Below are positions 11,586 through 28,706 of a stretch of DNA of 64,000 bases, piece by piece. Origin of the DNA: Candidatus Nomurabacteria bacterium GW2011_GWD2_36_14 (GTDB lineage Bacteria > Patescibacteriota > Minisyncoccia > Phycocordibacterales > UBA9973); the NCBI GenBank assembly GCA_000991405.1, contig LBRL01000001.1, forward strand, positions 315,200-379,199, written 5' to 3'. The number at the start of each line of letters is the position of its first letter. The stretch's first letter is position 1. The notes under the pieces are model-generated. The model saw nothing but the letters and a program-made list of their open reading frames with translations. It did not search any database and was not told the DNA's origin. The translations under genes were made by a program, and so were the position numbers.

Positions 11586-12626
11586 TTAAAGAGTTTTTAG
11601 AAATTCTTTAATTATAGTTTCTACTTCCTTTGAATTACTAGTGTCCATGAGTTTTACACGAAGCTCCTTGGCCCCATCGAAGCCATTCACATAGGCTTTA
11701 TAATGTTTCTTCATAACGGCAAAGTTTTTAACCTTTCCTAAAAGTTTATCATAGAGCTTTGTGTGTTCAACTAGAACTTTCAATTTTTCTTTTATTGAAA
11801 TTTCTTGGCTCCTTGAGGCCTTGCCTCTGGCTCCCTTGAGGCAAGGCCTCTCCCTGCCAAAAAACCAAGGGTTACCAAAGACAGCTCTGCCTACCATGAT
11901 GCCATCGCAGCCAGTTTCTTTAGCTAACCTTATCCCATCTTCTAAACTTTTGACATCTCCATTGCCTATTATTTTTGTTTTCACCCCCATCTTGTTTCTT
12001 ATTTCTACTACTTCCTTCACGTGCTCCCATCTTGCTGGAACTAGGGACATCTCTTTCCTTGTACGAGCATGCACAGTCAAAGCATCAATATCTTGAGAAA
12101 GCAAAAAAGGAATCCATTCACTTATCTGATTTTTATTATAACCAATACGAGTCTTTACAGATATAGACATACTTTTAGCTTTCTTCTTTTTAGAGTCCTT
12201 TATACCATCCTTCACCGCTTCTATAATCTCTCCGGCTTTCTTTATATCCTTCATCATTGCTGCTCCTGCACCTTGCTTCTCTATAGAACGGTCAGGGCAA
12301 CCCATATTTATATCAATACCGTCAAATCCTAAGTCGGCACAAAGTTTAGAAGCCTCACGCATTTTGACGGGATTGGAAGAAAAAAGTTGAACAACTATTG
12401 GCCTTTCTTTCTCACTATAAAGCAAATCATATTTCAAAACTTCACGTCCCTTGCTTGATAAACCGTCTGCCGATACAAACTCGGTCCACATCACGTCTGG
12501 CTTGCCATACTTGGCAAACATACTTCGAAAAGCCACGTCGGTAACGTCTGCCATTGGCGCTAAACAAAAAAACGGTTTTGGTAATTTATCCCAGAATTTC
12601 ATAAATTTGAAAATTAAAGTCTTCAT
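11586..12626 (-). CDS. dus: tRNA-dihydrouridine synthase
   Basis: LAPMADVTD...FR TIM-barrel Dus motifs. The gene contains an in-frame palindromic insert (see the repeat at 11811-11853). Confidence 0.8.
   Translation of the reverse strand: MKTLIFKFMKFWDKLPKPFFCLAPMADVTDVAFRSMFAKYGKPDVMWTEFVSADGLSSKGREVLKYDLLYSEKERPIVVQLFSSNPVKMREASKLCADLGFDGIDINMGCPDRSIEKQGAGAAMMKDIKKAGEIIEAVKDGIKDSKKKKAKSMSISVKTRIGYNKNQISEWIPFLLSQDIDALTVHARTRKEMSLVPARWEHVKEVVEIRNKMGVKTKIIGNGDVKSLEDGIRLAKETGCDGIMVGRAVFGNPWFFGRERPCLKGARGKASRSQEISIKEKLKVLVEHTKLYDKLLGKVKNFAVMKKHYKAYVNGFDGAKELRVKLMDTSNSKEVETIIKEFLKTL
11811..11853. repeat. GC-rich palindromic insert inside dus (GAGGCCTTGCCTC-N10-GAGGCAAGGCCTC), in frame
   Basis: 13-bp perfect inverted repeat. 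It encodes the extra peptide ...RERPCLKGARGKASRSQE... The same core appears at 28116-28150 and in terminator apices. Confidence 0.6.
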
Positions 12627-12734
12627 AAAATAGCTCTTCTCATCGGGTCCGCATAATTTCTTGCTAGAAATTTGCTCATTGCTCGGGCCGTCGCCCTCCG
12701 CCGGCCCCTCTGATAAGACTATTTTATTTCGTCT

Positions 12735-13598
12735 TTAATTAAACTTATATAGTACCTTATTCTTAAACCTAAGATCTATATATAGAAGAGTATCATACTT
12801 TGAATTTATTTCATTTGCAAATTCTTTCTCCTTCATGGCTGTAGAGAAATTATCCAATATTGTTACCCAATCATTATCTTCCTTGAAAAGTATTTTAGGA
12901 TTTGAATTCCCTTGCGATTTTAAATAAAGAGAATATATGCCATTTGAATCAACAACAAGATAAGATGGATTAAACCCCAAGGATATAACTCCATCCATGA
13001 GTCTCACTAATTCATGGAACCTTTCTTTCTCATACATCTGCGTACCCAACGGATTATTAGCATCTCCTTTTATCTTTGTATAATATTTGAAATATACATC
13101 TCCTGAGAAGTATGGTGCTTTGTCGAAAATATATCCATCATTATTTACAAAGTAACAATTCTCCCCTATCTCTTCCTTATTTAGAGGAATAGATACTCCG
13201 CAATACAAATATGAACCAGTACGCTCTTCTAATTCAACTTTTAAAGTATTGAATCCAGATCTTTTTATTGTAAGTTTTTCTATTCTAGGAAATTCTGTTA
13301 TAAGACTTTTGTAAATCTTATCATGTGGATATACGAGAAAGTTAGAACGAGAAAAGAGCCATACATACTTACCTGACAATTTCACCCTAACACTAGATTC
13401 TATGTCTTTCTCATCTATAATATTATCTCCTATAACTACTATCTTATCTATCACAATCTTTGGATGTGACGAGAAATACGAAAGAGCTCCTACAAGAGAT
13501 ATAAAAAGTATAAAAAATAATATAATTAAACGCAATCGTCGAATTCTACGATTGCGCTTAATCAAAGCTATTCGTGGTGATGTAGGAATATCTTTCAT
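12735..13598 (-). CDS. ftsQ: FtsQ/DivIB-like cell-division protein (POTRA domain)
   Basis: Short cytoplasmic Arg-rich N-terminus, one TM segment, then a POTRA-like beta-rich region. Confidence 0.5.
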   Translation of the reverse strand: MKDIPTSPRIALIKRNRRIRRLRLIILFFILFISLVGALSYFSSHPKIVIDKIVVIGDNIIDEKDIESSVRVKLSGKYVWLFSRSNFLVYPHDKIYKSLITEFPRIEKLTIKRSGFNTLKVELEERTGSYLYCGVSIPLNKEEIGENCYFVNNDGYIFDKAPYFSGDVYFKYYTKIKGDANNPLGTQMYEKERFHELVRLMDGVISLGFNPSYLVVDSNGIYSLYLKSQGNSNPKILFKEDNDWVTILDNFSTAMKEKEFANEINSKYDTLLYIDLRFKNKVLYKFN

Positions 13599-13611
13599 TT
13601 ATTTTTAAAAT

Positions 13612-14871
13612 TTATGAAATAATATCTTTCCCCATGTATTTCTGTAAGACTTCCGGAACTTTTATCGTGCCATCGGCTTGTTGGAAGTTCTCTACCATTG
13701 AAACTAAAATCCTAGGAGTTGGTATAGCTGTGCAATTAAGTGAGTGGGCATAATTCATCTTGCCATTCTCATCCTTATATCTAATATTCATACGACGTGT
13801 CTGAAAATCATGAAAGTAAGAGGCAGAAGAAATCTCTCTATACTTTTCTTCCTTTGGAACCCAGAGTTCTACATCATACTTCTTCACTTGACCCATCCCC
13901 AAATCCCCTCCACAATTTACGACAGTACGATATGGAATTCCCAATGATTCTATAAATTCTTCAGTATTACGATTTATTTCTTCATGGAAAGCTACACTTT
14001 CAGTATGAGAAGCAGTGCATAGAACCACTTGCTCGAGCTTGTAGAATTCATGAACTCTTATCAATCCTTTTACATCCTTTGAGTGACTTCCAGCTTCTCT
14101 TCTATAACAAGGAGAAAATCCTAAATATTTTTTAGGTAACTCTTCAATTTTCAAAATTTCATCCGCATGGAAACCCATAAGTGGAACCTCCGCTGTACCT
14201 GCCAAGAAATCCCCATCTTGAGTTTTATACAAATCATCTTCACCTTGAGGTAAGTACCCTGTACCAAAGAAAGTTTTCCTATTTACAACAATTGGTGGAA
14301 TAAAGGGAGTGAAGCCTTTCTCTGAAAAGAAATCCATCGCATAATTCCAAATAGCCATAGACAAACGAACTCCATCTCCTGTAAGGAAGTAACCCCTGAA
14401 TCCATGAACCTTCACTCCACGTTCAAAGTCAACCATTTTGAGATTGGTCATGAGTTCTATATGATCCTTTGGCTCAAAATTAAAAGATGTTTTCTCTCCC
14501 CAAGCTTTTATCTCTTGATTATCAGCATCACTTTCCCCTTCAGGCACTGACATATCAGGAATATTAGGAACTGTAAGCATCAACGATTGCCATTCTGTCA
14601 TAACGGTTCTTAATTCTTCTTCTTTACCCACTAGCTCTTCTTTTACCATTTTCATTTCTCCTATCATTTGTCCACGAACAGCCATGTCTTTCTCTGTGGC
14701 GATAGAATTATTCATTTTATTCTGCTCTCCTCGCAAGAATTCAACACGTGAAAGAATCTCGAGACGCTTTTCATCAATATCAAGAAGCTTATCTATATCT
14801 ACTTCGATGTGCTTCTTCTTGGCACCCTCTTTAATTATATCTTTATTCTCACGTATGAATTTAATATCTAA
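13612..14871 (-). CDS. serS: Seryl-tRNA synthetase
   Basis: MLDIKFIREN... coiled-coil N-terminal arm plus class II motifs. The ORF track extends to 14907, but those extra codons are encoded by a 12-bp-stem hairpin. The start at 14871 is preferred. Confidence 0.85.
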   Translation of the reverse strand, partial: LDIKFIRENKDIIKEGAKKKHIEVDIDKLLDIDEKRLEILSRVEFLRGEQNKMNNSIATEKDMAVRGQMIGEMKMVKEELVGKEEELRTVMTEWQSLMLTVPNIPDMSVPEGESDADNQEIKAWGEKTSFNFEPKDHIELMTNLKMVDFERGVKVHGFRGYFLTGDGVRLSMAIWNYAMDFFSEKGFTPFIPPIVVNRKTFFGTGYLPQGEDDLYKTQDGDFLAGTAEVPLMGFHADEILKIEELPKKYLGFSPCYRREAGSHSKDVKGLIRVHEFYKLEQVVLCTASHTESVAFHEEINRNTEEFIESLGIPYRTVVNCGGDLGMGQVKKYDVELWVPKEEKYREISSASYFHDFQTRRMNIRYKDENGKMNYAHSLNCTAIPTPRILVSMVENFQQADGTIKVPEVLQKYMGKDIIS

Positions 14872-14886
14872 CATATATATAGTATA

Positions 14887-14923
14887 CCCCAAAGTAAAAT
14901 TTTTCACAAAATTTACTTTGGGG
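14887..14923. promoter_or_regulatory. 12-bp-stem hairpin (CCCCAAAGTAAA...TTTACTTTGGGG) in the serS 5' leader / divergent serS-dprA intergenic region
   Basis: Visible in the sequence. It lies 16 nt upstream of the preferred serS start. Confidence 0.4.
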
Positions 14924-14951
14924 CACGGTAAAAAATGTTATACTATTTAAA

Positions 14952-14983
14952 TTACTAGTCACAAACAACTAATTACTAGAAAC
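14952..14983 (+). promoter_or_regulatory. Direct-repeat box pair TTACTAGTCAC-N10-TTACTAGAAAC ending 7 nt upstream of the dprA ATG
   Basis: aTTACTAGTCACaaacaactaaTTACTAGAAACtaatccc-ATG. Nearly identical to the clpB box. Confidence 0.45.
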
Positions 14984-14990
14984 TAATCCC

Positions 14991-15854
14991 ATGGAAGACG
15001 TCTACAAATTAAAACCGGAACAATTTCCAAAAGCTTTATTAGAGATACCGGAACCGCCGAAAGTTCTATATATACGAGGGAAACTTCCGAGTGAAGATAT
15101 GATCTATTTGGCAGTTGTCGGCTCTCGTAAATACACCTCGTATGGTAGAGATATTTGCGAGAAATTAATAAGAGGACTCAAAGGCTACCCTATAGTCATA
15201 GTCTCAGGGCTTGCTATCGGCATGGATAGTATTGCACATAGAATAGCACTAGATACTGGGCTCACAACGATTGCATTCCCTGGCTCTGGACTTGATAATA
15301 CTGTCCTGCATCCAAGAAGTAATATAAAACTTGCCCAAGAAATAGTAGACAAAGGCGGGTGTGTAATATCAGAACTTGAACCGTCATGCCCAGCAGCTTT
15401 GTACTCTTTTGTAAGAAGAAATAGATTAATGGCCGGAATGGTTAAAGCTGTACTTATAATAGAAGCAGAAGAAAAGTCAGGTACACTTGTCACTGCTCGT
15501 CTTGCTCTCGACTACAACCGCGACGTTCTAGCAGTCCCAGGCTCGGCCTTCTCTTCAAACTCAAATGGGACAAACTGGCTCATCAAACAAGGAGCCACCC
15601 CTGTAACCAACAGTGAGGAAATTCTCATCGCCCTAGGATTCAATATTGAAAAGTCCAAGCAAACAGACAAAGAAAAGTACGCCGACTGCGGAAAAAATGA
15701 AATGAAAATTATTGAACTCTTGCGTGAGCCAATGGAACGCAACGACCTCATCCGTGAACTCGGCATGAACATCGGCGAAGCTAATGCCCTACTCTCCATA
15801 ATGGAACTAAAAGATTTGATTAAGGAAGAATTAGGGGAGATTAGAAAAATTTAA
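14991..15854 (+). CDS. dprA: DNA-processing protein DprA/Smf
   Basis: VVGSRKYTSYGR...SGLAIGMD...AVPG Rossmann-like DprA core. Confidence 0.8.
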   Translation: MEDVYKLKPEQFPKALLEIPEPPKVLYIRGKLPSEDMIYLAVVGSRKYTSYGRDICEKLIRGLKGYPIVIVSGLAIGMDSIAHRIALDTGLTTIAFPGSGLDNTVLHPRSNIKLAQEIVDKGGCVISELEPSCPAALYSFVRRNRLMAGMVKAVLIIEAEEKSGTLVTARLALDYNRDVLAVPGSAFSSNSNGTNWLIKQGATPVTNSEEILIALGFNIEKSKQTDKEKYADCGKNEMKIIELLREPMERNDLIRELGMNIGEANALLSIMELKDLIKEELGEIRKI

Positions 15855-15903
15855 ATAAACAATTATTTGCAAAAATAATTAGAAGGTGTTACTAATATAG
15901 ACA

Positions 15904-18132
15904 ATGAAACTATTAATTGTTGAATCACCATCGAAAGCAAAGACAATAGAAAAATATTTGGACGGCGCTTATACCGTACGCGCCTCTGTTGGACATATAC
16001 GCGACTTACCGAAATCAAATAAAGATGCCATAGATATAGAGGGTGGTTTTATTCCTCGTTATGAAATTTCAAAAGGCAAAGAAAAAGTTGTCCATGATTT
16101 GAAAACTCTTTCAGAAAAAGCGGATACCATAATGCTTGCAACCGACCCGGACCGTGAGGGAGAAGCTATCTCTTGGCATTTAAAAGAACTCTTAGATGCT
16201 GACAAGAAAATAAAAGCCAAGATAAAGCGTGTAGCCTTTCATGAAATTACAAAAGAGGCAGTAGAAGAAGCTTTGAAAAATCCTCGTGATATAGACCAAA
16301 GTCTAGTAAAGGCTCAAGAAGCTCGCAGAGTCCTAGATAGACTTGTAGGATATGACCTATCTGGAATAATCTGGAAGAAAGTCCGATACGGCCTTTCGGC
16401 TGGTAGAGTTCAATCTCCTGCACTCCGTATCATAATGGAAAGGGAAAGAGAAATTCGTGCTTTCATACCTGAACAATATTGGACTCTTGAAGGAAACTTT
16501 GAAACACACAAAAAAAACAAAATAACTTTGTCTTGTGTAGAAGAACCTCGCGACGAAAAAATTGTAAAAAACATTTTGGAACTTGGCAATAAAGAAAAGT
16601 GGTATGTAAAAGATTTGAAAACGAGTGAACAGAAGAGGCAACCTCGTGCTCCTTTTACAACCTCTACCCTTCAACAGACAGCAAGTACTAGACTTGGATT
16701 CTCCCCTTCACGAACAATGCAGGTCGCACAGAAACTTTATGAGCAAGGATTTATAACTTACATGCGTACTGATAGTACCAACTTGAGTCTTGTAGCTCAA
16801 AACCAAATAATTGCACTCGTAGAAAAAAAATATGGTAAAGAATATGCCGAGAAACATACATATAAAGCAAAATCAAAAAATGCTCAAGAAGCCCACGAAG
16901 CAATCCGCCCAACACATATAGAACAATTAAATGCTGGAGCAAATGAAGAGCAACACAAACTTTACCAACTCATATGGGAAAGAGTTGTGTCTTCACAAAT
17001 GTCTGATGCTAAATTATTAAAAACAAAAATAACAGCCAACTTAAAAGAAAATAAGATTCCTGACTTTACTGCCAATGGTTCACGAGTACTTTTCCCCGGG
17101 TGGCTCATATGCGAAACAGGGGCTCGAGGAGAGGATGTAGAACTTCCAGAAGTTACCGTTGGCGAAGAATTAAAGCTTATAGAATTAAATAGTACAGAAA
17201 AGGCCACAGAACCACCCAACCGCTATACTGAAGCAGGGCTTGTGAAAGAGCTTGAAGCTCGTGACATAGGAAGACCTTCTACATATGCATCGATAATGAA
17301 AACTCTCGAAGATAGAGGCTACGTCAGAAAAGAAGGCAAGACATTGTTCCCCACTGACACTGGGGACGTGGTCTCAAGTTTCCTTGAAGAAAATTTCGGT
17401 GAATATATTAGTGATACTTTCACTGCGGATATGGAAGATAAGCTTGACGATATATCAAATGGTAAAAGAGAATATATAAAGACATTGAAAGACTTCTATG
17501 CACCATTCCAAAAAGATGTAAAAGAAAAAGAAAAACTCGCCAAGGCTACAAATATGGGAGAAGCTCCAAGTGACATACTTTGTCCTAAGTGTGAAAGTAG
17601 GATGATAGTTAAACTTTCCCGTGGAGGTAAATTCTACTCTTGTAGCAAATACCCAGACTGCGATGGTGCTAGAACTATCGAAGGAGAAGTTCTAGATGGA
17701 CCAAAAGAAACAGGAGAGATTTGCCCAACTTGTGGGGAGAAGAAAGGTAAAAGTGGTGGAGGAAAACTTGTCATAAGAGTCAGACGTGATGGTGGTGGAA
17801 CTTTCATATCATGTTCTCGTTATCCCAAATGCAAATTTATAAAACAAGACGAAGAAGAAATAAAAAGAAAAATGACAGACATAACTTGCCCAACTTGTAA
17901 TAAAGGCAAAATGATGGAAAGAAAGGGACGCTTTGGAATATTCTATTCGTGTTCCAATTACCCAGATTGTAAAAATGCTATTAAAGCAAAACCCACAGGA
18001 AACATTTGTGAACTCTGTCAGTCACTGATGATGGAAGGTACAAAAACTATTCCGGAAAGATGTAGTAATAAAATGTGTAGAAATCATAACCCGCATAAAC
18101 TTGGCGATAATATAAAATCTAACAAAAAATAA
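15904..18132 (+). CDS. topA: DNA topoisomerase I with C-terminal Zn-ribbon repeats
   Basis: MKLLIVESPSKAKTI Toprim motif, a catalytic Tyr region, and four CxxC...CxxC ribbons. Confidence 0.9.
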   Translation: MKLLIVESPSKAKTIEKYLDGAYTVRASVGHIRDLPKSNKDAIDIEGGFIPRYEISKGKEKVVHDLKTLSEKADTIMLATDPDREGEAISWHLKELLDADKKIKAKIKRVAFHEITKEAVEEALKNPRDIDQSLVKAQEARRVLDRLVGYDLSGIIWKKVRYGLSAGRVQSPALRIIMEREREIRAFIPEQYWTLEGNFETHKKNKITLSCVEEPRDEKIVKNILELGNKEKWYVKDLKTSEQKRQPRAPFTTSTLQQTASTRLGFSPSRTMQVAQKLYEQGFITYMRTDSTNLSLVAQNQIIALVEKKYGKEYAEKHTYKAKSKNAQEAHEAIRPTHIEQLNAGANEEQHKLYQLIWERVVSSQMSDAKLLKTKITANLKENKIPDFTANGSRVLFPGWLICETGARGEDVELPEVTVGEELKLIELNSTEKATEPPNRYTEAGLVKELEARDIGRPSTYASIMKTLEDRGYVRKEGKTLFPTDTGDVVSSFLEENFGEYISDTFTADMEDKLDDISNGKREYIKTLKDFYAPFQKDVKEKEKLAKATNMGEAPSDILCPKCESRMIVKLSRGGKFYSCSKYPDCDGARTIEGEVLDGPKETGEICPTCGEKKGKSGGGKLVIRVRRDGGGTFISCSRYPKCKFIKQDEEEIKRKMTDITCPTCNKGKMMERKGRFGIFYSCSNYPDCKNAIKAKPTGNICELCQSLMMEGTKTIPERCSNKMCRNHNPHKLGDNIKSNKK

Positions 18133-18142
18133 TACACAATAT

Positions 18143-18173: not shown

Positions 18174-18178
18174 TAATT

Positions 18179-19657: not shown

Positions 19658-19662
19658 AAATA

Positions 19663-19700
19663 AACTAAAAACTTACAGGCCTTGCCTGTAAGTTTTTAGT
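19663..19700. terminator. Bidirectional terminator hairpin between rel and parB
   Basis: aaaaaCTTACAGGCcttGCCTGTAAGttttt. The apex is 'aggccttgcct'. Confidence 0.6.
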
Positions 19701-19703
19701 TTA

Positions 19704-20748
19704 TTAGATTGAAAAATTCTTAATATTATAGAGGTCTACATCTTCCTCTGCCTTTTTCACCTCTTCATTAGTACGATCGTCTATTAAATGCATATCATCT
19801 TGTGAATCTTCTACTATCAAAACCTCTCCATCAGGTACTGAAACTTCCACCTCCCCTGCTTTATTCTCTGCCTCTTTCTGAGAGATAAATTTCTCAAGCA
19901 TTAGATTAGGGTTACCACCTTCATTATTTTTTGATTTAATGATATCGAGAATTGTACGAAGATCATCGTTGGTAAAGAAGTCGATAGTGATATACCCTCC
20001 ATTTTCTTTCCTTTCTATGTGAACTCTCGTACCAAGGGTTTCCTGAAGCTTCCCTTCTATTTCGCTTATTTCTGGGTCTTGAATATACTCCTTCTTTCGA
20101 ACCTTATCAAAGGCAATTTTGCGAGCAATCTTCTCTGCGTCACGGACAGTGAGCTTCTTCCACATGATTTCTTTGAAAAGCACAGACTGCTCATCGGGCC
20201 TATCGGAAAGCATAAGGATAGGACGTGTATGGCCTTCGCTTATTTTACCAGCAGATAGAGCATCAAGCATTTCTTGTGGAAGTGCAAGTAGACGAAGAGT
20301 GTTGGAGACGTACTCGCGACTCTTCCCCATTTTTTGACCAATCTGAGTATGATTAAATTTAAACTCTTCTACAAGTCGGAAGAATGCACGAGCACGCTCG
20401 ACTGCATTCAAATCTTCGCGTTGAAGATTCTCAATAATAGAAAGTTCAAGCTTGGCCATGTTGTCGTCTCCCACACGAATAATAGCTGGGACTTGTGTGA
20501 GCCCAGCAAGCTTTGAAGCTCGGAGCCTTCTCTCTCCAGCGATGAGCTCGTACTCTACTACTATACCTTCGTCTTCTTTAACTATCTCAATACGAGAAAC
20601 TGTAAGCGGTTGCAAAATACCATACTGACGAATCGAATCAGCCAAATCTCTCAACCTTGCTTCGTCAAACTCACGACGAGGCTGAAAAGGGTTCGGCTTA
20701 ATCTTTTCTATATCTATCCAAAAAATTGAATTACTATAAAGTTGTGAC
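19704..20748 (-). CDS. parB: Chromosome partitioning protein ParB/Spo0J
   Basis: ILQPLTV...GERRLRA ParB box and an HTH. The ORF track extends to 20825. The MSQLYS start at 20748 is preferred. Confidence 0.8.
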
Positions 20749-20882: not shown

Positions 20883-20888
20883 ATATAC

Positions 20889-21578: not shown

Positions 21579-21855
21579 CAAAAGAAAAAAGAGGAGCAAC
21601 TTGTTGTGCTCCTCCAATAAACTATATACATATATAAGCGCAGTTACTCACCCTACATATATTAAACTTCTTGACTCAGAAGTTGCTCTTAAGAAATAGA
21701 AACACCTCACAGATGTGAGTATGAACATCTTTCTAATCAATACAATAAAAGAGTCATTTCTAATGCATTGTGCTTGTTTTTCCCTTTACGAGTATACTTG
21801 TTTTTGAGCTATATAGTTCATTCATAGATTACTATAATTTCACCTTTTGTCAAAC

Positions 21856-21888
21856 CAAAAATCGTGAGGCAAGGCCTCACGATTTTTG
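21856..21888. terminator. Bidirectional terminator hairpin (tRNA-Tyr side and NUDIX side)
   Basis: aaaaatCGTGAGGCaagGCCTCACGatttttg. Confidence 0.6.
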
Positions 21889-22407
21889 TTAATCTTCAGG
21901 TAATTCTTCTACCTCTTGTATTTTCACTTCTCTTTTCAGTTCTTTCTGGAATGGAGTGTAGTGGGACTCTACTAGAACCTTCTTACCACTCAAAATATAT
22001 GGGAAGAATTCTCTATCTGCTGGCATCATTTTGTCATAAGGTAAATCAGTGAAATTAAAGAAAGTTGGAGTTATCATAGCTCCGTCTTCTGTCTCTTTGG
22101 GTTCTCCCTTCCAATCTTTCACCAAGAAAAAGTGGACCCGTGATACGAACATACTTCCATCACTTTTCTCATTATGAAAGTCCACAATAGCTACTTTCTC
22201 TAAATTTTCTATCTTTGCTTTTAATCCAGATTCTTCTTCAAGCTCCCTTATTGCACTTTCTAAGATAGTTTCTCCGTCTTCCACTCCTCCTCCGTAGCCA
22301 TTCCAGCAACCCATACCTATCTTCCTTGTCTTCATACCAAGAAGAACTTTCCCTTCTTTTACAGGAAGGCAAACCGTGGCAACAAATAAAACCTTTTCTT
22401 CTTGCAT
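21889..22407 (-). CDS. NUDIX hydrolase (MutT-like)
   Basis: Nudix box GGGVEDGETILESAIRELEEESG. The MQEEK start at 22407 is preferred over the ORF start at 22443. Confidence 0.7.
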   Translation of the reverse strand: MQEEKVLFVATVCLPVKEGKVLLGMKTRKIGMGCWNGYGGGVEDGETILESAIRELEEESGLKAKIENLEKVAIVDFHNEKSDGSMFVSRVHFFLVKDWKGEPKETEDGAMITPTFFNFTDLPYDKMMPADREFFPYILSGKKVLVESHYTPFQKELKREVKIQEVEELPED

Positions 22408-22465
22408 AAGAGTAATTATATATTTACTAAAACAAAAATACAAATTACTGTCTATAAAATAATAC

Positions 22466-23098
22466 TTATACTTGTGGAGCTCTCCAGAAAATTCTTTCTA
22501 GTATAGAATTCCCCTTCTTGGCTTGTACCATATTTGCATATTTTTCACCTTTTCTAATACATTTATTAAGAATAACTTTATCCTCAAATGCTTTAATATT
22601 CCCAGTATAGAAAGCTCCTAGAACCTTAGCACCAAAGTATAAGAACACACCTCTTAGCCAAAAAGAAGGAAAAGCAAAGAAAAGAATAGTTTCAGCCCAA
22701 TTTGGAGTTCCCCCAGATACAAGAAAATAAGTCCTAAGATAAGATAGCTTCCCTACTGGTTGTCCAAACTTATTACGCTCGGTTAAATCTAAGGCTAGAA
22801 ATCTAATCCTATCTATAAAATTTTTCAATCGTGCTGGAACCGAAAAATTATAAGTCGGAGTTGCTATAACGAGCCCGTCAGAATTTTTAATTTTATTAAT
22901 AAGATCTCTAAACTTTTCTTCATGCAAAGCAGGGCCAACACTATTCTCATAATTATAGAAATCAATAGGGATGTCTTCTAAGTATATCTTCTCTACTTCA
23001 ATACCAGCAACTTTATTCATCCCAACAATAAAATTGTCGAGCATTGTATCAGAATTCCTATTACGTGAAGGAGAGGAAGATAAGGCTATTATTTTCAT
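22466..23098 (-). CDS. NAD(P)H-dependent FMN reductase / flavodoxin-like fold protein
   Basis: MKIIALSSSP...LVIATPTYNFSVPARLKNFIDR motif. Confidence 0.65.
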   Translation of the reverse strand: MKIIALSSSPSRNRNSDTMLDNFIVGMNKVAGIEVEKIYLEDIPIDFYNYENSVGPALHEEKFRDLINKIKNSDGLVIATPTYNFSVPARLKNFIDRIRFLALDLTERNKFGQPVGKLSYLRTYFLVSGGTPNWAETILFFAFPSFWLRGVFLYFGAKVLGAFYTGNIKAFEDKVILNKCIRKGEKYANMVQAKKGNSILERIFWRAPQV

Positions 23099-23113
23099 AA
23101 ATTAATACTTTTA

Positions 23114-23644
23114 TTAAGAATTACTCTTAACTAACTCTACACTTATATCCAAATCAACATTATCAGAAACAACTATTTCACCTTTATCTAAAGTAGCACT
23201 CCAGTTCAACCCAAAATCCTTACGATTAATAGTTCCCGAAGCATCAAAACTCATAACACTCTCTTTGTTCATATTCTCTCCAGCCCCATTTAGCTTCACA
23301 TCTAGACTAACCTCTTTAATTACCCCATGTATATCCAAATCTCCGGTCATAACAAAACTATCCTTCCCATTCTCTATTATTTTTTTTGACATGAAAGATA
23401 ATATAGGGAATTTAGTAACGTCAAAAAAATCTGGAGACATCAGATGTCCATCTCTATCAGCATTATTGGTACTTATACTATTGGTTTCGGCCTTGAACTT
23501 TATTGAGGCTTTAGTAAAGTCACTGTCCTCCATCTCTACACTTCCATCAAATTTATTAAATTGACCTCTAATATTTGAAATCATTAAATGTTTTACTTTA
23601 AAACCTATTATTGAATGCATTGTGTCTATATTCCACTTATTCAT
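23114..23644 (-). CDS. YceI-like domain protein
   Basis: IGFKVKH..ISNIRGQF...GDLDIHGV YceI signature. Confidence 0.75.
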   Translation of the reverse strand: MNKWNIDTMHSIIGFKVKHLMISNIRGQFNKFDGSVEMEDSDFTKASIKFKAETNSISTNNADRDGHLMSPDFFDVTKFPILSFMSKKIIENGKDSFVMTGDLDIHGVIKEVSLDVKLNGAGENMNKESVMSFDASGTINRKDFGLNWSATLDKGEIVVSDNVDLDISVELVKSNS

Positions 23645-23704
23645 GTTATTTTATACTTCTATTAATTTATTAATAATATTATTGTAATCTATTTACTTTA
23701 CTTT

Positions 23705-23718
23705 GTAAAGTACTTTAC
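23705..23718. promoter_or_regulatory. Perfect 14-nt palindrome GTAAAGTACTTTAC in the divergent yceI/hxlR intergenic region; candidate HxlR-type operator
   Basis: The palindrome is visible in the sequence. It lies ~15 nt upstream of the regulator ORF. Confidence 0.35.
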
Positions 23719-23732
23719 TTGTTAAAGCATAA

Positions 23733-24047
23733 ATGTTAATATCTGTCTATAATATGAACAAGAGTAAACATAGTAAATGCCCAATAGCAAAAGTTGCATT
23801 ATTGTTATCAGATCCTTGGACAATGCTTATAATTCGCGATATTTTAAACAAAAAAATGAGATTTGGAGATCTTGAGAGTTCCTTAGAAAGTATTAGCACA
23901 AGAACACTAACTAAAAAAATTAAACAATTAGAATTAGAAGGAATTATTGAGAAAACAGAACACTATTATACAATTACAAAAAAAGGTTCTGGGTTGAATA
24001 CTATAATAAAATCTATGTCTAAATATGGACAAAAATATTATAAATAA
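23733..24047 (+). CDS. HxlR-family winged-HTH transcriptional regulator
   Basis: CPIAKVALLLSDPWTMLIIRDIL...FGDL...IS.RTLTKKIKQLE pattern. Confidence 0.7.
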   Translation: MLISVYNMNKSKHSKCPIAKVALLLSDPWTMLIIRDILNKKMRFGDLESSLESISTRTLTKKIKQLELEGIIEKTEHYYTITKKGSGLNTIIKSMSKYGQKYYK

Positions 24048-24052
24048 ACAAT

Positions 24053-24085
24053 AAATACCTGATTATTTAATCAGGTGTTTATTAT
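24053..24085. terminator. Terminator hairpin between hxlR and clpB
   Basis: ACCTGATTAtttaaTCAGGT followed by a T-rich run. Confidence 0.5.
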
Positions 24086-26779
24086 TTATTTCACTCCTAT
24101 TCTTCCCTTTACTCTTACATTTGATACCATTGTCCCCTTCTTCATCTCTACTATAATTTCCTTATTTTTCATTGTGACGTTTACAATATCTCCCTTCTTC
24201 ACCCCCTTGCCTATTATAAATGTCGCCACAGGATTAAGTATTTTATCTTGTATGAGTCTACCTAGTGGCCTTGCTCCATAGTGAGGGTTGTAGCCTTCCT
24301 TTGCCAAGTAAGTGAGCGCATCATTTGAAATTTCAAAACCAATTTCTTTAGCCTTTAATCTATCCACTACCACCTTTATCTTCAAATCTACAATGTGCCT
24401 GATAGCTTCAAGGGAAAGAATATCAAAAACAATTGTATCGTCGAGTCTATTTAAGAATTCTGGACGGAAATAATCCTTCAATGATTCTAATACTTTTTCT
24501 TTAGTCTGGGTATACTCATCTACTTTTGATTTATTGGTGAAGCCTAAAGTCTCCATCTTCTCGATAAACTGTGAACCAATATTTGAAGTAAGGATTATAA
24601 TCGTATTCTTAAAGTTCACTATTCTACCCTTGGCATCTGTCAGACGTCCTTCGTCAAGAACTTGCAGAAGCACGTTGAAAACTTCTGGGTGAGCTTTCTC
24701 AATCTCGTCAAAAAGAATTACAGAATACGGTCGGTGACGCACAGCTTCTGTAAGGTTGCCTGACTCATCATAACCAACATAGCCCGGTGGTGAGCCGATG
24801 AGCTTGGAGACACTATGACGCTCCATGTATTCACTCATATCCACTCTGATCAAGGCCTTGTCATCGTTGAACATGAATTCCGATAAAGCTTTCGTAAGCT
24901 CAGTTTTCCCTACACCTGTAGGACCCAAGAAGATAAATGAGCCGATGGGCTTGTTGGGATCTGAAATTCCAGCTCTATTCCTGCGAACAACATTTGCAAT
25001 TTTCTTAATAGCTTCATCTTGCCCTATTACACGAGCCCGGAGAACATCTTCTATGTTGGCCAACTTTTCTCTTTCTTCCTCAAGCATTTTCGAAAGTGGA
25101 ATACTTGTCCACATAGAAACGACTTCAGCAATATCTTCGGCGGTAATTTCTTCTTTCAGAATTCTTCGAGACTTTTGTAACTTCTTAAGTTTGGCAAGCT
25201 TGGTATCTAACTTCTTCTTCAAGTCTGGAATCTCTCCATAACGTATTTCAGCAACTCGTGCCAAGTCCGCGTGCATTTCGGCATTCTCCCCTTCGAGACG
25301 CAAAGTTTCTAATTCTTTTTTAATACCGCGAATCTCTACGACTGTCTCTTTCTCATTTTTCCATTTGAGTTCTAGCTCGTGAGTCTTTTCTTTCAAGTTA
25401 CCTATTTCTTTGTCTATATCTTTGACACGTGCATGAGCCTTCTTGCTTGATTCAGTTTTACCTGAGTCTCTGCCAATCTCATTTAGCAATGCTTCCTTCT
25501 CTATTTCGAAACGCATAATTTTGCGATGAGCATCTTCTAGAACTGGAGGCTTGTTTTCAAGTGCGATACGGAGAGCCGAAGAAGCTTCATCGATAAGATC
25601 CACAGCTTTATCGGGAAGATATCTGTTTGTAATATAGCGAGTAGAGAGAGTTACCGCAGAAACTATAGCATCATCTGTAATTCGAACTCCATGGAAAAGT
25701 TCATACTTCTCCTTGAGTCCACGAAGAATGGCAATAGTATCGTCCACACTTGGCTCGTCGATAAATATAGGTTGGAACCTTCTTGCAAGTGCAGGATCCT
25801 TCTCTATATGCTTCTGGTATTCCTTTAAAGTTGTCGCACCTATAGCACGAAGCTCTCCTCGAGCGAGTGCAGGCTTTAGCATATTGGAAGCATCGAGAGA
25901 TCCTTCAGAGCTTCCTGCTCCGACAATAGTATGGATCTCATCTATGAAGAGTATAATTTTGCCTTCAGCCTTCTCTATTTCTTTCAAGATACCACGAAGT
26001 CTCTCTTCAAATTCTCCTCTGTACTTGGTACCGGCAAGAAGAAGTCCCAAATCTAAGGATACAACTTCTTTGTCTTTCAAACTTTCAGGTACATCATTTT
26101 TAGCAATTCTTTGTGCCAAAGCTTCTGCGACTGCCGTCTTACCAGTACCTGCCTCGCCTATAAGTATAGGGTTATTCTTCGTACGACGAGAAAGTATCTG
26201 CATCATACGCATGATCTCAGTATCACGCCCTATGACTGGGTCAAGCTTGTCTTGACGAGCAAGCAAAGTAAGATTCCTTGTAAATTTGTTGATGAGTTTG
26301 GGTTGCTTGGGAGTGTTTACCTCACTACCCTTCTCTTTCCTAAGCTGGTTTAGAACTTCTAGAACTTGGTCTTTATTGATTTTAAATTTGCCAAGTAACT
26401 CTCGTGCCTCACCCGGAGTTTCAAGTAGAGAGAAGAACAAATGCTCAGTTGATACAAAGTCATCCTTCATATCAGTCGCTATCTTGCTAGAGCTTTCGAT
26501 AACTTGAGCTAAGTCTGGAGTAAGATACAGTTGATATGATGGAGACAAGGTATTCCTATTCTCAGGTGACTCTATCATGTCACTTAAGTTGTCTACTAAG
26601 AGAGTCGTATCGATATCCATTTTCTCTAGTATTGATATAACTACTGAATCTTCTTGAATAAGAAGCGATATGAGTAGGTGTAGAGTGTTCACATGATTCT
26701 GCCCACGTTCAATAGCCAGCTCGTGAGCCTTTCTAATAACTTCTTTGGCTTTAGTTGTAAAATGATTGAATGGGGGCAT
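24086..26779 (-). CDS. clpB: ATP-dependent chaperone ClpB
   Basis: Two AAA+ modules (GEAGTGKTA; GPTGVGKTE) with a long coiled-coil middle domain and a Clp_N repeat region. Confidence 0.9.
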   Translation of the reverse strand: MPPFNHFTTKAKEVIRKAHELAIERGQNHVNTLHLLISLLIQEDSVVISILEKMDIDTTLLVDNLSDMIESPENRNTLSPSYQLYLTPDLAQVIESSSKIATDMKDDFVSTEHLFFSLLETPGEARELLGKFKINKDQVLEVLNQLRKEKGSEVNTPKQPKLINKFTRNLTLLARQDKLDPVIGRDTEIMRMMQILSRRTKNNPILIGEAGTGKTAVAEALAQRIAKNDVPESLKDKEVVSLDLGLLLAGTKYRGEFEERLRGILKEIEKAEGKIILFIDEIHTIVGAGSSEGSLDASNMLKPALARGELRAIGATTLKEYQKHIEKDPALARRFQPIFIDEPSVDDTIAILRGLKEKYELFHGVRITDDAIVSAVTLSTRYITNRYLPDKAVDLIDEASSALRIALENKPPVLEDAHRKIMRFEIEKEALLNEIGRDSGKTESSKKAHARVKDIDKEIGNLKEKTHELELKWKNEKETVVEIRGIKKELETLRLEGENAEMHADLARVAEIRYGEIPDLKKKLDTKLAKLKKLQKSRRILKEEITAEDIAEVVSMWTSIPLSKMLEEEREKLANIEDVLRARVIGQDEAIKKIANVVRRNRAGISDPNKPIGSFIFLGPTGVGKTELTKALSEFMFNDDKALIRVDMSEYMERHSVSKLIGSPPGYVGYDESGNLTEAVRHRPYSVILFDEIEKAHPEVFNVLLQVLDEGRLTDAKGRIVNFKNTIIILTSNIGSQFIEKMETLGFTNKSKVDEYTQTKEKVLESLKDYFRPEFLNRLDDTIVFDILSLEAIRHIVDLKIKVVVDRLKAKEIGFEISNDALTYLAKEGYNPHYGARPLGRLIQDKILNPVATFIIGKGVKKGDIVNVTMKNKEIIVEMKKGTMVSNVRVKGRIGVK

Positions 26780-26785
26780 AAATTA

Positions 26786-26817
26786 GGTTCTAGTAACTAG
26801 GTTCTAGTGACTAGTAA
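26786..26817 (-). promoter_or_regulatory. Direct-repeat box pair TTACTAGTCAC-N10-TTACTAGAACC ending 6 nt upstream of the clpB ATG
   Basis: Minus-strand reading: tTTACTAGTCACtagaacctagTTACTAGAACCtaattt-ATG. The dprA box at 14952-14983 is nearly identical. Confidence 0.45.
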
Positions 26818-26833
26818 AGATATTAATAAAAAA

Positions 26834-27415
26834 TTATTGCGTTACTTTTGATTCATCAGTCTTTGCTGATGTTTCAATAATAGCTTTCTTCTCTGAAATT
26901 TTTAAAATACTAAATCCGTTCGTAAACTTCTTCAAAACCGTTGCATCAAAGTCTGTCTTATTTAAAATTACTTTATACTTTAAACTATCAGTCAATATAG
27001 ATGAATCCACAAGCACTAGCCCTACATCTGAAATTATAATACCTTGTCCAAGTTCTTTTGTTGTTGTAGGGGTCTCAGCTGTACCATCTGTAGCAGAAAG
27101 TGTGGATTGATTCGTTGCCTCTGTGACAGGAATACTACTGTCTATTGCATAGATAGACACGACAGCATCTCCATCTCCAAGGACAATACTTCCATTTTGT
27201 GTATTTGTAGTTGGAGTACTTTCCTTCACTTGCGTTTCTACTGTTGTTACTTTCTCTATAGTTCTTTGAATTACGTTATTTATAGTCTGTGGTATGGCTT
27301 TCGGCATCTGATTCATAAGCGAGACAGTCACAATACCCGTAGCAATAGACACTACAAAAGTAATCAGGAGTGTAAGTAAAACCAGCTGTTTTTTGTCTAA
27401 ATCTTTAATATCCAT
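26834..27415 (-). CDS. Hypothetical membrane-anchored protein
   Basis: N-terminal TM segment. It has a Thr-rich linker and a GQGIIISDVGLVLV segment faintly resembling a trypsin-like fold. No catalytic motifs are seen. Confidence 0.35.
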   Translation of the reverse strand: MDIKDLDKKQLVLLTLLITFVVSIATGIVTVSLMNQMPKAIPQTINNVIQRTIEKVTTVETQVKESTPTTNTQNGSIVLGDGDAVVSIYAIDSSIPVTEATNQSTLSATDGTAETPTTTKELGQGIIISDVGLVLVDSSILTDSLKYKVILNKTDFDATVLKKFTNGFSILKISEKKAIIETSAKTDESKVTQ

Positions 27416-27437
27416 CTTTCTATTCTATCATATCTAC

Positions 27438-28706
27438 TTATTTTTTCCACTTTTTATATTTATCTAAAATCTTAGTTATAGTAAGGATGAATTTATCTAT
27501 GTCAGTCTTTTTGGTATCACGTCCGAGGGTGATGCGGAGCGAGCCTTCTTCGCCTTTATAAGTTTCTCCTTTAGCCTTTCTTATTTCTGTTATCACATAC
27601 GATTCATCATCCTCTCCACTTTTGCACGCCGACTTGGCAGAAACTTCTATCCCCTTGGCATCAAGCTCTATTACCAGAAGCTCGCTTGAAATGTTAGATA
27701 TTGAAATATTTATATTATTCGGAAGTCTGTTTTTTGTATTACCATTTAAAACTATTTTAAAGTTATCATTGTTTATTTTTAACAATTTACCAATCGTATA
27801 GTCGCGAAGTTTAGTGAGTCTCTCTGCTTCTTTCACTTTCATTTTGTTTGCAATTTCAAATGCTAAAGATAATCCTGCAATCGAAGAGACATTTTCAGTT
27901 CCAGAACGTAATCCAAATTCTTGCTCTCCTCCACTATAGATAGGAGAAAGCTTTATACCTCTTTTCTTATACAAGACACCTACTCCTTTGGGTCCATAAA
28001 TTTTCGAACCGTTAAAAGAAAGCATATCTACACCCAGCTTATCTACATTTGAAATATCTAAATAATTAATTGCTTGGGTCGCATCAGTATGAAATAAGGG
28101 ATAAGAAGCGGGAAAAGGCCTTGCCTCAAGAGAGTCCGAGGCAAGGCCTTGAGGAGCTCCCTTCCCTTTTCTATAATGCCTTATCTCTTTCGCAATTTCT
28201 TGGATTGGTTCAATTGTACCGATTTCATTGTTGGCATACATTATTGAAATAAGAGCTGTGTTACTTCTTATAGCCTCTTTTATATCTTTCGGATTAACTA
28301 TTCCATTTTCATTTACTTTTATATAAGTTACTTCGGCCCTTCCTCTCTCTTCTAATAATTTAAAATTCATTATGACTGCCGGATGTTCTATGGTACTTGT
28401 AATAATGTGAGGAATGTGGCCCTTGTTGTTCAATTGATAATTATTTACAACACCTAGGATAACCATGGCAATACTCTCCGTACTACTTCCAGTAAAGATG
28501 ATTTCATCGCCGTGAGCATTCATACCCCTTGCTATCTTTTCTCTTGCTTCTTCTATAATGGTTCTAGATTTTACTCCACCGCTATGAATAGAAGTAGCAT
28601 TGGCAAAAAGCTTTTTTTCATAAAAAGACATAAGTCGAAGTACCCTCTTGTCTATAGGAGTGGCAGAAGCATAATCGAGGTAAGTTTTGTGAATATTTTT
28701 AGCCAT
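27438..28706 (-). CDS. Cysteine desulfurase family (IscS/NifS-like, class V aminotransferase)
   Basis: YLDYASATP...SFNGSKIYGPKGVG PLP-lysine region. The gene contains an in-frame palindromic insert (28116-28150). Confidence 0.75.
   Translation of the reverse strand: MAKNIHKTYLDYASATPIDKRVLRLMSFYEKKLFANATSIHSGGVKSRTIIEEAREKIARGMNAHGDEIIFTGSSTESIAMVILGVVNNYQLNNKGHIPHIITSTIEHPAVIMNFKLLEERGRAEVTYIKVNENGIVNPKDIKEAIRSNTALISIMYANNEIGTIEPIQEIAKEIRHYRKGKGAPQGLASDSLEARPFPASYPLFHTDATQAINYLDISNVDKLGVDMLSFNGSKIYGPKGVGVLYKKRGIKLSPIYSGGEQEFGLRSGTENVSSIAGLSLAFEIANKMKVKEAERLTKLRDYTIGKLLKINNDNFKIVLNGNTKNRLPNNINISISNISSELLVIELDAKGIEVSAKSACKSGEDDESYVITEIRKAKGETYKGEEGSLRITLGRDTKKTDIDKFILTITKILDKYKKWKK
28116..28150. 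repeat. GC-rich palindromic insert inside the iscS-like gene (AGGCCTTGCCTC-N11-GAGGCAAGGCCT), in frame
   Basis: 12-bp perfect inverted repeat encoding ...GKGAPQGLASDSLEARPFPAS... Confidence 0.6.

Follow-up and report, generated by a model that had tools for sequence, protein, structure and literature searches.

Hairpin-core repeats in frame within Patescibacterial genes: probable REP/REPIN-type elements of a RAYT-like transposase clade

One short palindromic core lies in frame within two conserved enzyme genes and again at the tip of hairpins between genes in a 64-kb stretch of Candidatus Nomurabacteria bacterium GW2011_GWD2_36_14 (contig LBRL01000001.1, positions 315,200 to 379,199), called the window here. 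The locus raises the question of what kind of element can occupy both places. REPs are short GC-rich hairpins and REPINs are inverted pairs of REPs; the systems they form with REP-associated tyrosine transposases (RAYTs; Y1/HUH, IS200-like) are extragenic by definition and known mainly from Proteobacteria. A preliminary description of this DNA had proposed a mobile or REP-like unit, and the proposal is supported by empty insertion sites, unrelated host genes, a transposase gene flanked by the core and terminator-like copies. The repeats are probably REP/REPIN-type elements of a Patescibacterial RAYT clade that act as terminators between genes and are tolerated as in-frame inserts within them, since the core flanks a Y1 transposase gene in four contigs and the transposase clades match the hairpin cores.

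The core AGGCAAGGCCT or its complement occurs seven times in the window, at 11816, 11839, 19677, 21867, 28116, 28139 and 55170. Dinucleotide shuffles of the window led to an expected count of 0.05 and in none of 100 cases to seven or more, so that the excess over composition is real. As in REP/REPIN families, the repeat is over-represented and dispersed, both as singles and as inverted doublets: the copies form two doublets and three single hairpins, to which one variant hairpin is added. The 11-mer is itself a mini-hairpin (AGGC-AAG/CTT-GCCT), so that each doublet pairs two near-palindromes, one per arm, in inverted orientation. The inverted repeats described earlier in two genes were found again at 11815-11850 and 28115-28150, with perfect 13-nt arms and 10-nt spacers. 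The first belongs to a REPIN-like doublet at 11807-11858 in the tRNA-dihydrouridine synthase (Dus) gene, with arms at 11815-11827 (GAGGCCTTGCCTC) and 11838-11850 (GAGGCAAGGCCTC) around the spacer TGGCTCCCTT; the second, in a cysteine desulfurase-like (IscS-like) gene, joins AAGGCCTTGCCTC and GAGGCAAGGCCTT and encodes QGLASDSLEARP. Each folds as one hairpin in DNA folding (-21.1 kcal/mol, z -5.7, and -17.3 kcal/mol, z -3.7, respectively).

All copies in the window are placed at a hairpin apex. The bases adjoining the 11-nt core vary among the seven copies, which share just a core of 11-13 nt and not the whole hairpin, and no GTAG or CGTC tag was found at the hairpin foot in the window copies or in the transposase-adjacent ones. 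The constant part is the apex AGGC-CTT/AAG-GCCT, with an outer stem free to vary if it remains paired; the apex appears to be the specificity-bearing part.

A core kept across distant Patescibacteria, in inverted pairs, at terminator apices and with a frame bias in genes recalls the DNA uptake sequences of Neisseria and Pasteurellaceae, whose inverted pairs form terminators and whose coding copies are frame-biased, and Patescibacteria are thought to depend on DNA uptake. That the core is an uptake sequence for natural competence is nevertheless highly improbable. Uptake sequences are non-palindromic motifs that occur about once per kb, independently of hairpin context, whereas the core has a density of only ~1 per 9 kb in the window, is always a hairpin apex and never a free motif, and occurs in 20 kb of the contigs L123 and L124 only as the two exact copies flanking the transposase gene. 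In addition, the copies in genes are genuine insertions that orthologues lack, rather than recoded residues, and the core is tied to a transposase gene, with dozens of alternative hairpin cores in other lineages.

Single hairpins alone are intergenic in the window. The hairpin at 19659-19705 (22-bp perfect stem, loop CTT on the plus strand, fold -21.5 kcal/mol, z -10.8) sits between convergent RelA/SpoT-like and ParB genes and has the look of a terminator for both directions; the inner portion of this hairpin, CTTACAGGCCTTGCCTGTAAG, is similar to a transposase-adjacent hairpin in L094. A terminator-like 15-bp perfect stem at 21856-21888 adjoins the stop codon of a NUDIX gene (21889-22443, minus strand), and the hairpin at 55153-55196 (core at 55170-55180), directly 3' of an ORF at 55198-55464 on the minus strand, is terminator-like on both strands. 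At 42716-42744, downstream of rpsR (42801-43043, minus strand), a variant hairpin carries the compensated core AAGCAAGGCTT. The core had been said to form the apex of intergenic hairpins with otherwise unrelated stems, and both statements hold, for three exact hairpins plus the variant and for outer stems unrelated to one another in sequence. Terminator use had also been proposed, in agreement with the hairpin-plus-T-run rule that all three exact-core hairpins satisfy; no Rfam family matched the intergenic hairpins. Placed just past stop codons and bracketed by A and T runs, the single hairpins would act as Rho-independent, often bidirectional, terminators.

This resemblance to functional terminators, with the CUU loop in the transcript of the respective upstream gene, would also suit a host function at the RNA or DNA level (terminator, mRNA stabiliser or protein-binding site), spread or kept by selection and gene conversion, the transposase-adjacent copies being incidental. 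Outer stems that differ among orthologous copies with pairing retained (ACTTGG/CCAAGT, ATTTGG/CCAAAT, ATACAG/CTGTAT) point in the same direction, as does the near absence of near-miss cores, with a single 1-mismatch relative in the window. A host function is unlikely as the explanation, given that it leaves unexplained the in-frame doublets of ~20 housekeeping genes, which no T run follows, the core on both sides of the transposase in four loci and the clade-specific cores; moreover, many orthologues do well insert-free.

The two host genes allow the inserts to be compared with empty sites. The Dus gene (11586-12626, minus strand; PF01207, E 9e-64) carries an insert encoding about GRERPCLKGARGKASRSQ at residues ~256-273. 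This part of the protein links the TIM barrel to the C-terminal helical domain, and the insert falls within a low-confidence inter-domain coil of the predicted structure (249-276, pLDDT ~52). The IscS-like gene (27438-28706, minus strand) encodes a class-V aminotransferase, and the insert splits its Pfam match (Aminotran_5) in two. The translations of both inserts are those given previously. Of 121 Dus sequences (72-98% identical), 54 are free of any insert, 15 contain the core insert and 52 contain a different one at that codon; the corresponding numbers for the IscS-like enzyme are 42, 23 and 54. The peptides, reported as absent from typical Dus and IscS proteins, are thus variable between orthologues and not conserved ancestral segments. 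Both sites are insertion hot spots for several palindrome families, because many close orthologues lack the insert and others have different palindromes there.

The IscS-like insert SAPQGLASGSLEARPFPA is nearly unchanged among orthologues just 60-70% identical overall, as would be the case if the peptides were functional protein segments and the palindromic DNA a by-product. The chance of this is very close to nil. Different genes read the same DNA in three frames, ~40% of the close orthologues have no insert and others have unrelated palindromes at the same codon, decayed versions exist (GLALGSLKARPFPA and GKALDSLKALPLSA), and the Dus insert lies in a predicted disordered linker.

The doublets extend well beyond this genome, though almost exclusively within Patescibacteria. 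When 185,579 species genomes were scanned for exact doublets, 36 loci were retrieved, 25 from named Patescibacteria lineages, 7 from unnamed MAGs and 4 from elsewhere. Copy number seems low, with 1-3 exact doublets per genome in the scan and none within 10 kb either side of the transposase gene in L123 or L124. About 30 of the 36 lie within long ORFs, in frame in ~20 different intact housekeeping genes including LigA, TopA, GyrB, DnaE, IF-2, RNase R, RseP, YchF, PurD, GatA, a PriA-like protein and RecR. The doublet, and not the single hairpin, is the intragenic form. Its commonest version in genes is a 42-nt unit translated LEALPPxGGKASK, which is open in all six frames; the LEALPP..GGKAS frame is used in at least 13 distinct genes against one in another frame, a bias of the coding copies that the preliminary description had proposed to look for. 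Across all genes, the doublet DNA is read as RPCL..GKAS, GLAS..EARP and EALPP..GKAS. Identical 42-mers occur in two unrelated genes of one genome (LigA in L013, RseP in L028), and the Dus-type unit of ~52 nt (GGCTCC..CTGCC) is also found in an unrelated context in L009. The same doublet in unrelated genes and genomes bears out the in-frame tolerance assumed earlier. The extragenic location by which REP/REPIN sequences are defined does not apply here, as both window doublets and ~30 of the 36 found elsewhere are intragenic. A doublet of a second REP family (GGAAGTCCGACTTCC-N9-GGAAGTCGGACTTCC) lies at 50676-50714, in frame in the TatD gene (50339-51286, minus strand).

A repeat flanking a Y1 transposase gene on both sides is the defining arrangement of REP/RAYT systems. 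Neither the window nor the 10 kb past its right end contains a transposase gene, and the RAYT link therefore rests on other genomes. In the metagenomic contigs L091, L086, L103 and L113, a ~220-aa Y1/HUH transposase gene has AGGCCTTGCCT upstream and AGGCAAGGCCT downstream, with ctAGGCCTTGCCTag 25-30 nt ahead of the ATG and ctAGGCAAGGCCTag at the stop; these adjacent copies carry CT..AG beside the core. In related genomes, the transposase gene appears to be single; the hairpin ahead of it has the CTT form and the one after it the AAG form, and the dispersed doublets have the same CTT...AAG order without the gene. Matching hairpins were found on both sides of 41 of the 64 transposase loci with enough flank, and the loops are reverse-complementary in 22. 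In a neighbour-joining tree of 78 transposases, protein clades coincide with the flanking hairpin cores. The variant core AAGCAAGGCTT flanks a sister clade (L083, L093, L100, L095-98), and the palindrome of the TatD doublet flanks the transposase genes of L041 and L043-L049.

The protein itself leaves room for an ordinary autonomous insertion sequence of the IS200/IS605 type, of which the palindromes would be miniature derivatives (palindrome-associated transposable elements) rather than partners of a domesticated RAYT. Pfam Y1_Tnp, the general IS200-like family, is above cut-off for four of the proteins, whereas NCBIfam REP_Tyr_transpos reaches E 1e-11 and 44.9 bits, under its 80-bit equivalog cut-off; the transposases therefore form a divergent clade. 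The HUH (NHFH) and Y..NP motifs are invariant and align with those of the closest solved structure, E. coli TnpA-REP (4ER8, E 0.0057), although ISDra2 TnpA scores almost as high, and genomic neighbourhoods differ between transposase clades. An ordinary insertion sequence is improbable all the same. IS200/IS605 elements occur in multiple copies and move as entire units; they share with the present system a Y1 HUH transposase, subterminal hairpins on single-stranded DNA and the lack of target duplication. Here, in contrast, the gene looks single-copy and syntenic, with one conserved location per lineage: the order trmD-RAYT-rpoB is common to L123 and L124, whose transposases are 86% identical, and the neighbours of the P0303 transposase gene are unchanged across all 24 contigs read. 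Just short hairpin pairs are dispersed. A TnpB partner is absent, protein and hairpin co-diversify, and, as in REP/RAYT units, inverted hairpins flank the gene no further than ~40 nt from its start and stop codons. Public annotation names of these proteins include 'REP element-mobilizing transposase RayT'.

Under the REP/REPIN reading, and with E. coli TnpA-REP and IS200/IS605 as models, we infer that the transposase mobilises the palindromes: it would bind the hairpins on single-stranded DNA and cut them, and the doublet would be re-joined elsewhere without target duplication. The genomes are ~93% coding, so most insertions fall in genes. Survivors would be those with a length multiple of three, no stop codon and a permissive loop or linker as target; the 42-nt unit would nearly always persist in the frame translated as the benign loop LEALPPxGGKASK, and the window survivors would be the inserts in the linker joining the Dus domains and in an IscS-like enzyme loop. 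To our knowledge, transposition activity has been demonstrated for no RAYT of the Patescibacterial clade, and we know of no experimental proof of REPIN mobilisation even in model species.

In orthologous codons of the IscS-like, Dus and RNase R genes (proteins 60-85% identical), the arms are either letter-perfect or rewritten on both sides. Rewritten arms in the IscS-like gene belong to a different REP family, and those in RNase R have different outer stems in perfect pairing. Exact arms at orthologous sites of proteins 60-70% identical are hard to explain by one old insertion and neutral drift, and the alternation of perfect and rewritten arms would imply that fixed hot spots undergo either replacement that depends on the transposase or homogenisation akin to gene conversion. 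We tentatively suggest that the Patescibacterial REPIN/RAYT system has moved from intergenic space into the linkers and loops of essential proteins, where the copies may be actively kept current. If so, short segments of housekeeping proteins would be repeatedly rewritten, which could be a general source of lineage-specific protein insertions in the phylum.

The closest known type departs from these repeats in three respects: they are mostly intragenic, their apex is conserved without a 5' GTAG tag, and several families occur at one codon. REP/REPIN-RAYT (TnpA-REP) systems of Enterobacteria and Pseudomonas (Nunvar 2010; Bertels & Rainey 2011, PMC3116915; Bertels 2017, PMC5581495) likewise have GC-rich hairpins as singles and inverted doublets, a single Y1/HUH gene flanked by the same hairpins, protein-repeat co-diversification, a stable gene position and intergenic copies just 3' of genes. 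Unlike those systems, in which the GTAG foot tag and the whole stem are conserved, the present one conserves an 11-nt apex, has doublets mostly in frame within genes, a shorter unit (34-52 nt), an apparently low copy number and a transposase under the curated RAYT cut-off.

In-frame palindromes have long been a puzzle in Rickettsia too, and a candidate enzyme and a tractable comparative system would be gained for it if the present reading is true. RPE-1 is ~100-150 bp long, whereas the unit here has 42 nt and the host phylum differs. As summarised in PMC3733652, Rickettsia palindromic elements (Ogata 2000/2002; Claverie & Ogata 2003) resemble these repeats functionally: they too are in-frame palindromic inserts of numerous unrelated housekeeping genes, in a genome that is reduced and AT-rich, with tolerance in surface loops and absence from orthologues. 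The core here flanks a Y1 transposase, in contrast to RPEs, for which the portions of the literature available to us describe no flanking transposase. Intragenic REPs and REP dimers tagged with GTAG/CGTC, many in replication or repair genes, occur in Opitutus terrae, Thauera and R. conorii (Di Nocera et al. 2013, PMC3733652); LigA, TopA, GyrB, DnaE, the PriA-like protein and RecR are comparable hosts here. In the available text of that article, intragenic copies are a minority and tagged, unlike the tag-free and mainly intragenic doublets of Patescibacteria, and multi-family hot spots are not mentioned.

If the REP/REPIN reading is true, part of the length variation in Patescibacterial housekeeping proteins is explained, and comparative material becomes available in the form of related transposases, which number in the thousands and have one hairpin core apiece, and of conserved genes with presence/absence polymorphisms. 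Apex-conserved, stem-free recognition and multi-family hot spots would suggest a recognition or targeting rule unlike that of E. coli TnpA-REP. At an insert, a domain match breaks in two, and both orthology and phylogeny based on alignments can be misled; the intergenic copies can be used as terminator annotations. In full-text literature searches, no paper connected REP/REPIN-RAYT systems with the candidate phyla radiation, although some Patescibacterial genes already bear the label RayT from annotation pipelines.

This 64-kb window, with a G+C content of about 36% and a coding share of about 93%, contains seven copies of the 11-nt core AGGCAAGGCCT, counted together with its complement AGGCCTTGCCT. 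Dinucleotide shuffles predict 0.05 copies, and seven or more were reached in none of 100 shuffles, which rules out chance or composition as their source. The core is commoner than composition predicts. Four of the seven copies form two doublets of inverted cores, in each of which two perfect arms of 13 nt enclose a 10-nt spacer. The first, GAGGCCTTGCCTC-tggctccctt-GAGGCAAGGCCTC at 11815-11850, lies within the Dus gene (11586..12626(-); PF01207, E 9e-64). The second, AAGGCCTTGCCTC-aagagagtcc-GAGGCAAGGCCTT at 28115-28150, lies within the IscS-like class-V aminotransferase/cysteine-desulfurase gene (27438..28706(-)), whose Pfam match is broken in two at the doublet. The other three copies are the apex of perfect hairpins at 19659-19705, 21856-21888 and 55153-55196, and a variant hairpin at 42716-42744 carries the compensated core AAGCAAGGCTT. 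The stems of the three single-core hairpins have no sequence relation to one another. The preliminary description had reported doublets in both genes and the core on top of intergenic hairpins with unrelated stems; all of this is borne out, and the peptides it gave for both inserts match the translation.

The core is a mini-hairpin by itself (AGGC-loop-GCCT), so that each doublet consists of one near-palindrome followed by its inverted copy, the first with the loop CTT and the second with AAG. Folded as single-stranded DNA, the elements reach -17 to -21.5 kcal/mol (z-scores -3.7 to -10.8). Allowing one mismatch adds just a single relative of the core in the window. The reverse layout, AAG...CTT, was absent from 730 kb of fetched DNA, a weak result, since this set was chosen for CTT...AAG. 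A special loop stability was considered and dropped after inspection of the sequence: the CTT/AAG loop is closed by C-G and is not known as one of the canonical tetraloops (CUUG, GNRA, UNCG) or as the DNA mini-hairpin d(GCGAAGC). A known RNA family was also rejected as the identity of the repeats, because Rfam at gathering thresholds returned only three tRNAs over the window and no match at the repeats.

All three exact-core hairpins begin a few bases from a stop codon. The hairpin at 19659-19705 lies between convergent RelA/SpoT-like and ParB genes, that at 21856-21888 follows a NUDIX gene, and that at 55153-55196 follows the ORF 55198..55464, while the variant is a short distance 3' of rpsR. 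The hairpin-plus-T-run rule holds for all three, and in two cases the strand is that of the upstream gene; such sites number 9 and 3 in the scanned regions, where 1.6 and 0.4 are expected. Read straight from the sequence, every intergenic copy takes the CUU loop form when its upstream gene is transcribed. The intergenic copies are putative terminators, and the T-run rule and the position at stop codons support the terminator role suggested earlier.

Other structured DNA is present between genes. About 280 nt of non-coding DNA (21580-21855) separate tRNA-Tyr from the REP hairpin; this stretch, free of family-matching ORFs and of Rfam matches, may encode a small RNA or act as a promoter region, and its minus strand has a terminator-like hairpin of its own at 21590-21615. 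Between the convergent genes 38824..39531(+) and 39585..42620(-), a perfect hairpin of 17 bp at 39534-39570, ACATAAAGAGCCCGACC-ttc-GGTCGGGCTCTTTATGT, is also terminator-like, with a GC-rich apex that is not among the cores seen beside transposases. An intergenic inverted repeat at 44710-44798, with 30-nt arms that are 90% complementary and 29 nt apart, adjoins a gene for a 1797-aa Peptidase_S74-containing protein (44870..50263) and is unrelated to REP cores.

The family extends to other genomes. A scan for AGGCCTTGCCTC-N6-20-GAGGCAAGGCCT in one genome for each of 185,579 species gave 36 exact-doublet loci, 25 of them in named Patescibacteria lineages (Nomurabacteria, Paceibacterota, Saccharibacteria, Uhrbacteria), seven in unnamed low-GC MAGs and four elsewhere. 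The most frequent form is a 42-nt unit, ACTTGGAGGCCTTGCCTC-caagtg-GAGGCAAGGCCTCCAAGT, with an 18-bp stem; some copies consist instead of two complete 23-nt hairpins (L017 and L033, where L-numbers denote contigs or loci of other genomes and metagenomes). About 30 of the 36 doublets are inside long ORFs. The host genes are intact and have housekeeping roles; they include those for YchF, PurD, TopA, a PriA-like protein, LigA, RNase R, a MiaB-like enzyme, GyrB, IF-2, RseP, DnaE, GatA, ATP synthase gamma and RecR. Identical 42-mers occur in LigA and RseP of one genome (L013, L028), and the Dus-type unit of about 52 nt was found again in an unrelated context in L009; these cases support a mobile unit. 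The 42-nt copies show no target-site duplication. Between filled and empty Dus sites the net difference is 39 nt, and divergence of the adjacent codons blurs the exact ends. The presence of copies inside intact genes across Patescibacteria supports the idea of a mobile, REP-like unit tolerated in frame.

The 42-mer is stop-free in all six frames. A frame-bias check of its copies, as recommended in the preliminary description, found the LEALPPxGGKASK frame in at least 13 distinct genes and another frame in one. In the window doublets, the 10-nt spacer shifts the frame between the arms, giving RPCL..GKAS in Dus and GLAS..EARP in the IscS-like protein. Since one element is read in three frames, the reading frames point to an element that would act at the DNA level and be filtered by selection on the peptide.

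Both window sites are variable among relatives. Among 121 Dus sequences (72-98% identical), the codon that follows GNPW[FI]F is free of any insert in 54, bears this family or its decayed forms in 15, and bears another insert in 52. At the IscS-like site, scored before [FY]P[LV]FHTDA, the counts are 42 without insert, 23 with this family and 54 with others. Had the inserts been conserved ancestral segments, as the orthologue comparison might have revealed, relatives would carry them; many do not, so that the segments are not ancestral, and judged by these alignments both sites are insertion hot spots. At the DNA level, at least four of five other Dus inserts are palindromic, one with the same architecture and a different core (AAGGACGGTCCTT...AAGGACCGTCCTT); the fifth (L039) has no clear palindrome. 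The IscS-like site of L130 is occupied by CGAGGTCAGACCTCG-gactccttt-GAGGTACGACCTC, which belongs to another REP family and has a comparable spacer. In the AlphaFold model of the window Dus (pLDDT 85.7 overall), the insert is in a coil (249-276, local pLDDT about 52) that joins the TIM barrel to the C-terminal helices. Further variable-length spots, mostly gapped runs of 13, 18 and 10-23 columns, occur at Dus residues ~17, ~44 and ~146. L130 also contains two segments enclosed by long inverted repeats: about 1.5 kb without a called gene (2940-4530), with repeats of about 50 nt containing CGCTTCCGC hairpins, and about 2.7 kb (4607-7351; HTH_3, PG_binding, PemK toxin), with GAACGGCTCA..TGAGCCGTTC hairpins on its flanks. 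Both may be other mobile units; tblastn found no Y1 transposase in either.

The arms are letter-perfect at orthologous codons although the proteins are 60-85% identical, and spacers and flanks have diverged (IscS-like gene: window, L007, L024). This conservation is biased by ascertainment, because exact arms were the criterion by which these loci were chosen. The family switch in L130 and the paired changes in outer stems are not affected by this bias: in RNase R these stems differ on both sides yet pair perfectly (ACTTGG/CCAAGT, ATTTGG/CCAAAT and ATACAG/CTGTAT in L023, L014 and L025). The exact arms may reflect selection on the hairpin, repeated hot-spot insertion or homogenisation against other copies.

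The repeats are linked to a transposase. L041, a contig with a Dus orthologue, carries a Y1_Tnp gene with TTTGGAAGTC[C/G]GACTTCCAAA on both flanks. The same palindrome forms an in-frame doublet, GGAAGTCCGACTTCC-N9-GGAAGTCGGACTTCC, in the window TatD gene (50339..51286(-), at 50676-50714) and flanks the Y1 transposase genes of L043-L049; it is probably the first repeat family of the preliminary description, in which the present family is the second. In a second homologue, L030, the transposase is flanked by CCACATGTC[G/T]GACATGTGG. A metagenome scan with an alignment of the L041 and L030 proteins gave 80 transposase loci; the same hairpin is on both sides in 41 of the 64 with enough flank, and the loops are reverse complements in 22 of those 41. 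The core under study accompanies four transposase genes (L091, L086, L103, L113), with ctAGGCCTTGCCTag 25-30 nt before the ATG and ctAGGCAAGGCCTag at the stop codon. In the 30 nt between upstream hairpin and ATG, these four loci share a conserved TTG..TATTATAT-like promoter motif. It ends just a few bases ahead of the start codon, which suggests that the transcript might be leaderless or have a very short leader.

The protein clades of a neighbour-joining tree built from 78 transposases correspond to hairpin cores. The AGGCCTTGCCT clade of the family under study is sister to that of AGGTCTTGCCT; another clade has AAGCCTTGCTT, matching the window variant at 42716, and GAAGTCNGACTTC, GACATCNGATGTC and GACGTCNGACGTC mark separate clades, with more cores in others. 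Inside one clade, the apex is constant and the outer stems vary. The proteins, of about 220 aa, score above the Pfam Y1_Tnp threshold and match the NCBIfam model for RAYTs (REP-associated tyrosine transposases) at E 1e-11, under its cut-off. A single-sequence search of solved structures found no match; only a profile search reached the best solved relative, E. coli TnpA-REP (4ER8), with HUH and Y..NP motifs aligned. Members appear in public records as 'transposase', 'REP element-mobilizing transposase RayT' or 'REP-associated tyrosine transposase' of Patescibacteria. Some transposase genes contain their own repeat in frame, encoding 'HMSDMW' from CACATGTCGGACATGTGG in L030:4033-4722 and 'LEVGLP' from GGAAGTCGGACTTCC in L041:2052-2762.

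In REP/REPIN-RAYT systems, single-copy Y1 transposases are flanked by REPs, and the dispersed unit is a REP doublet (PMC5581495). The Patescibacterial family resembles them in its single hairpins, inverted doublets, one repeat on both transposase flanks and co-diversification. By analogy, the transposase would mobilise the repeats on single-stranded DNA. One paper describes intragenic REPs as a minority in a few species and equates them with some Rickettsia palindromic elements (PMC3733652). Here, in contrast, most doublets lie in frame within genes, conservation falls on the hairpin apex, the foot carries neither GTAG nor CGTC, the unit measures 34-52 nt, and several families gather at the same codon. 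The best classification of the family is as a Patescibacterial variant of REP/REPIN-RAYT systems that resides largely in genes. The class of phenomenon is already known; full-text searches that combined Patescibacteria or CPR with terms for palindromic or in-frame elements, REPINs or RAYTs returned nothing relevant, and no paper on this Patescibacterial case.

No transposase gene was found in the window or the next 10 kb beyond. The transposase P0303, whose gene has one location in all 24 contigs read, was rejected as that of this genome; its source is a different organism, and the core on its flanks is the variant AGGTCTTGCCT. The gene order trmD-RAYT-rpoB occurs in two genomes, with transposases 86% identical. 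Reading 60025..63627(-) as rpoC, which by comparison with this order would place a transposase just beyond, was wrong, as the gene is IleRS-like. It encodes a 1200-aa isoleucyl-tRNA-synthetase-like protein in which, according to precomputed Pfam matches, a His_Phos_1 (histidine phosphatase) match is nested between tRNA-synt_1 segments; this architecture is an unusual fusion or insertion.
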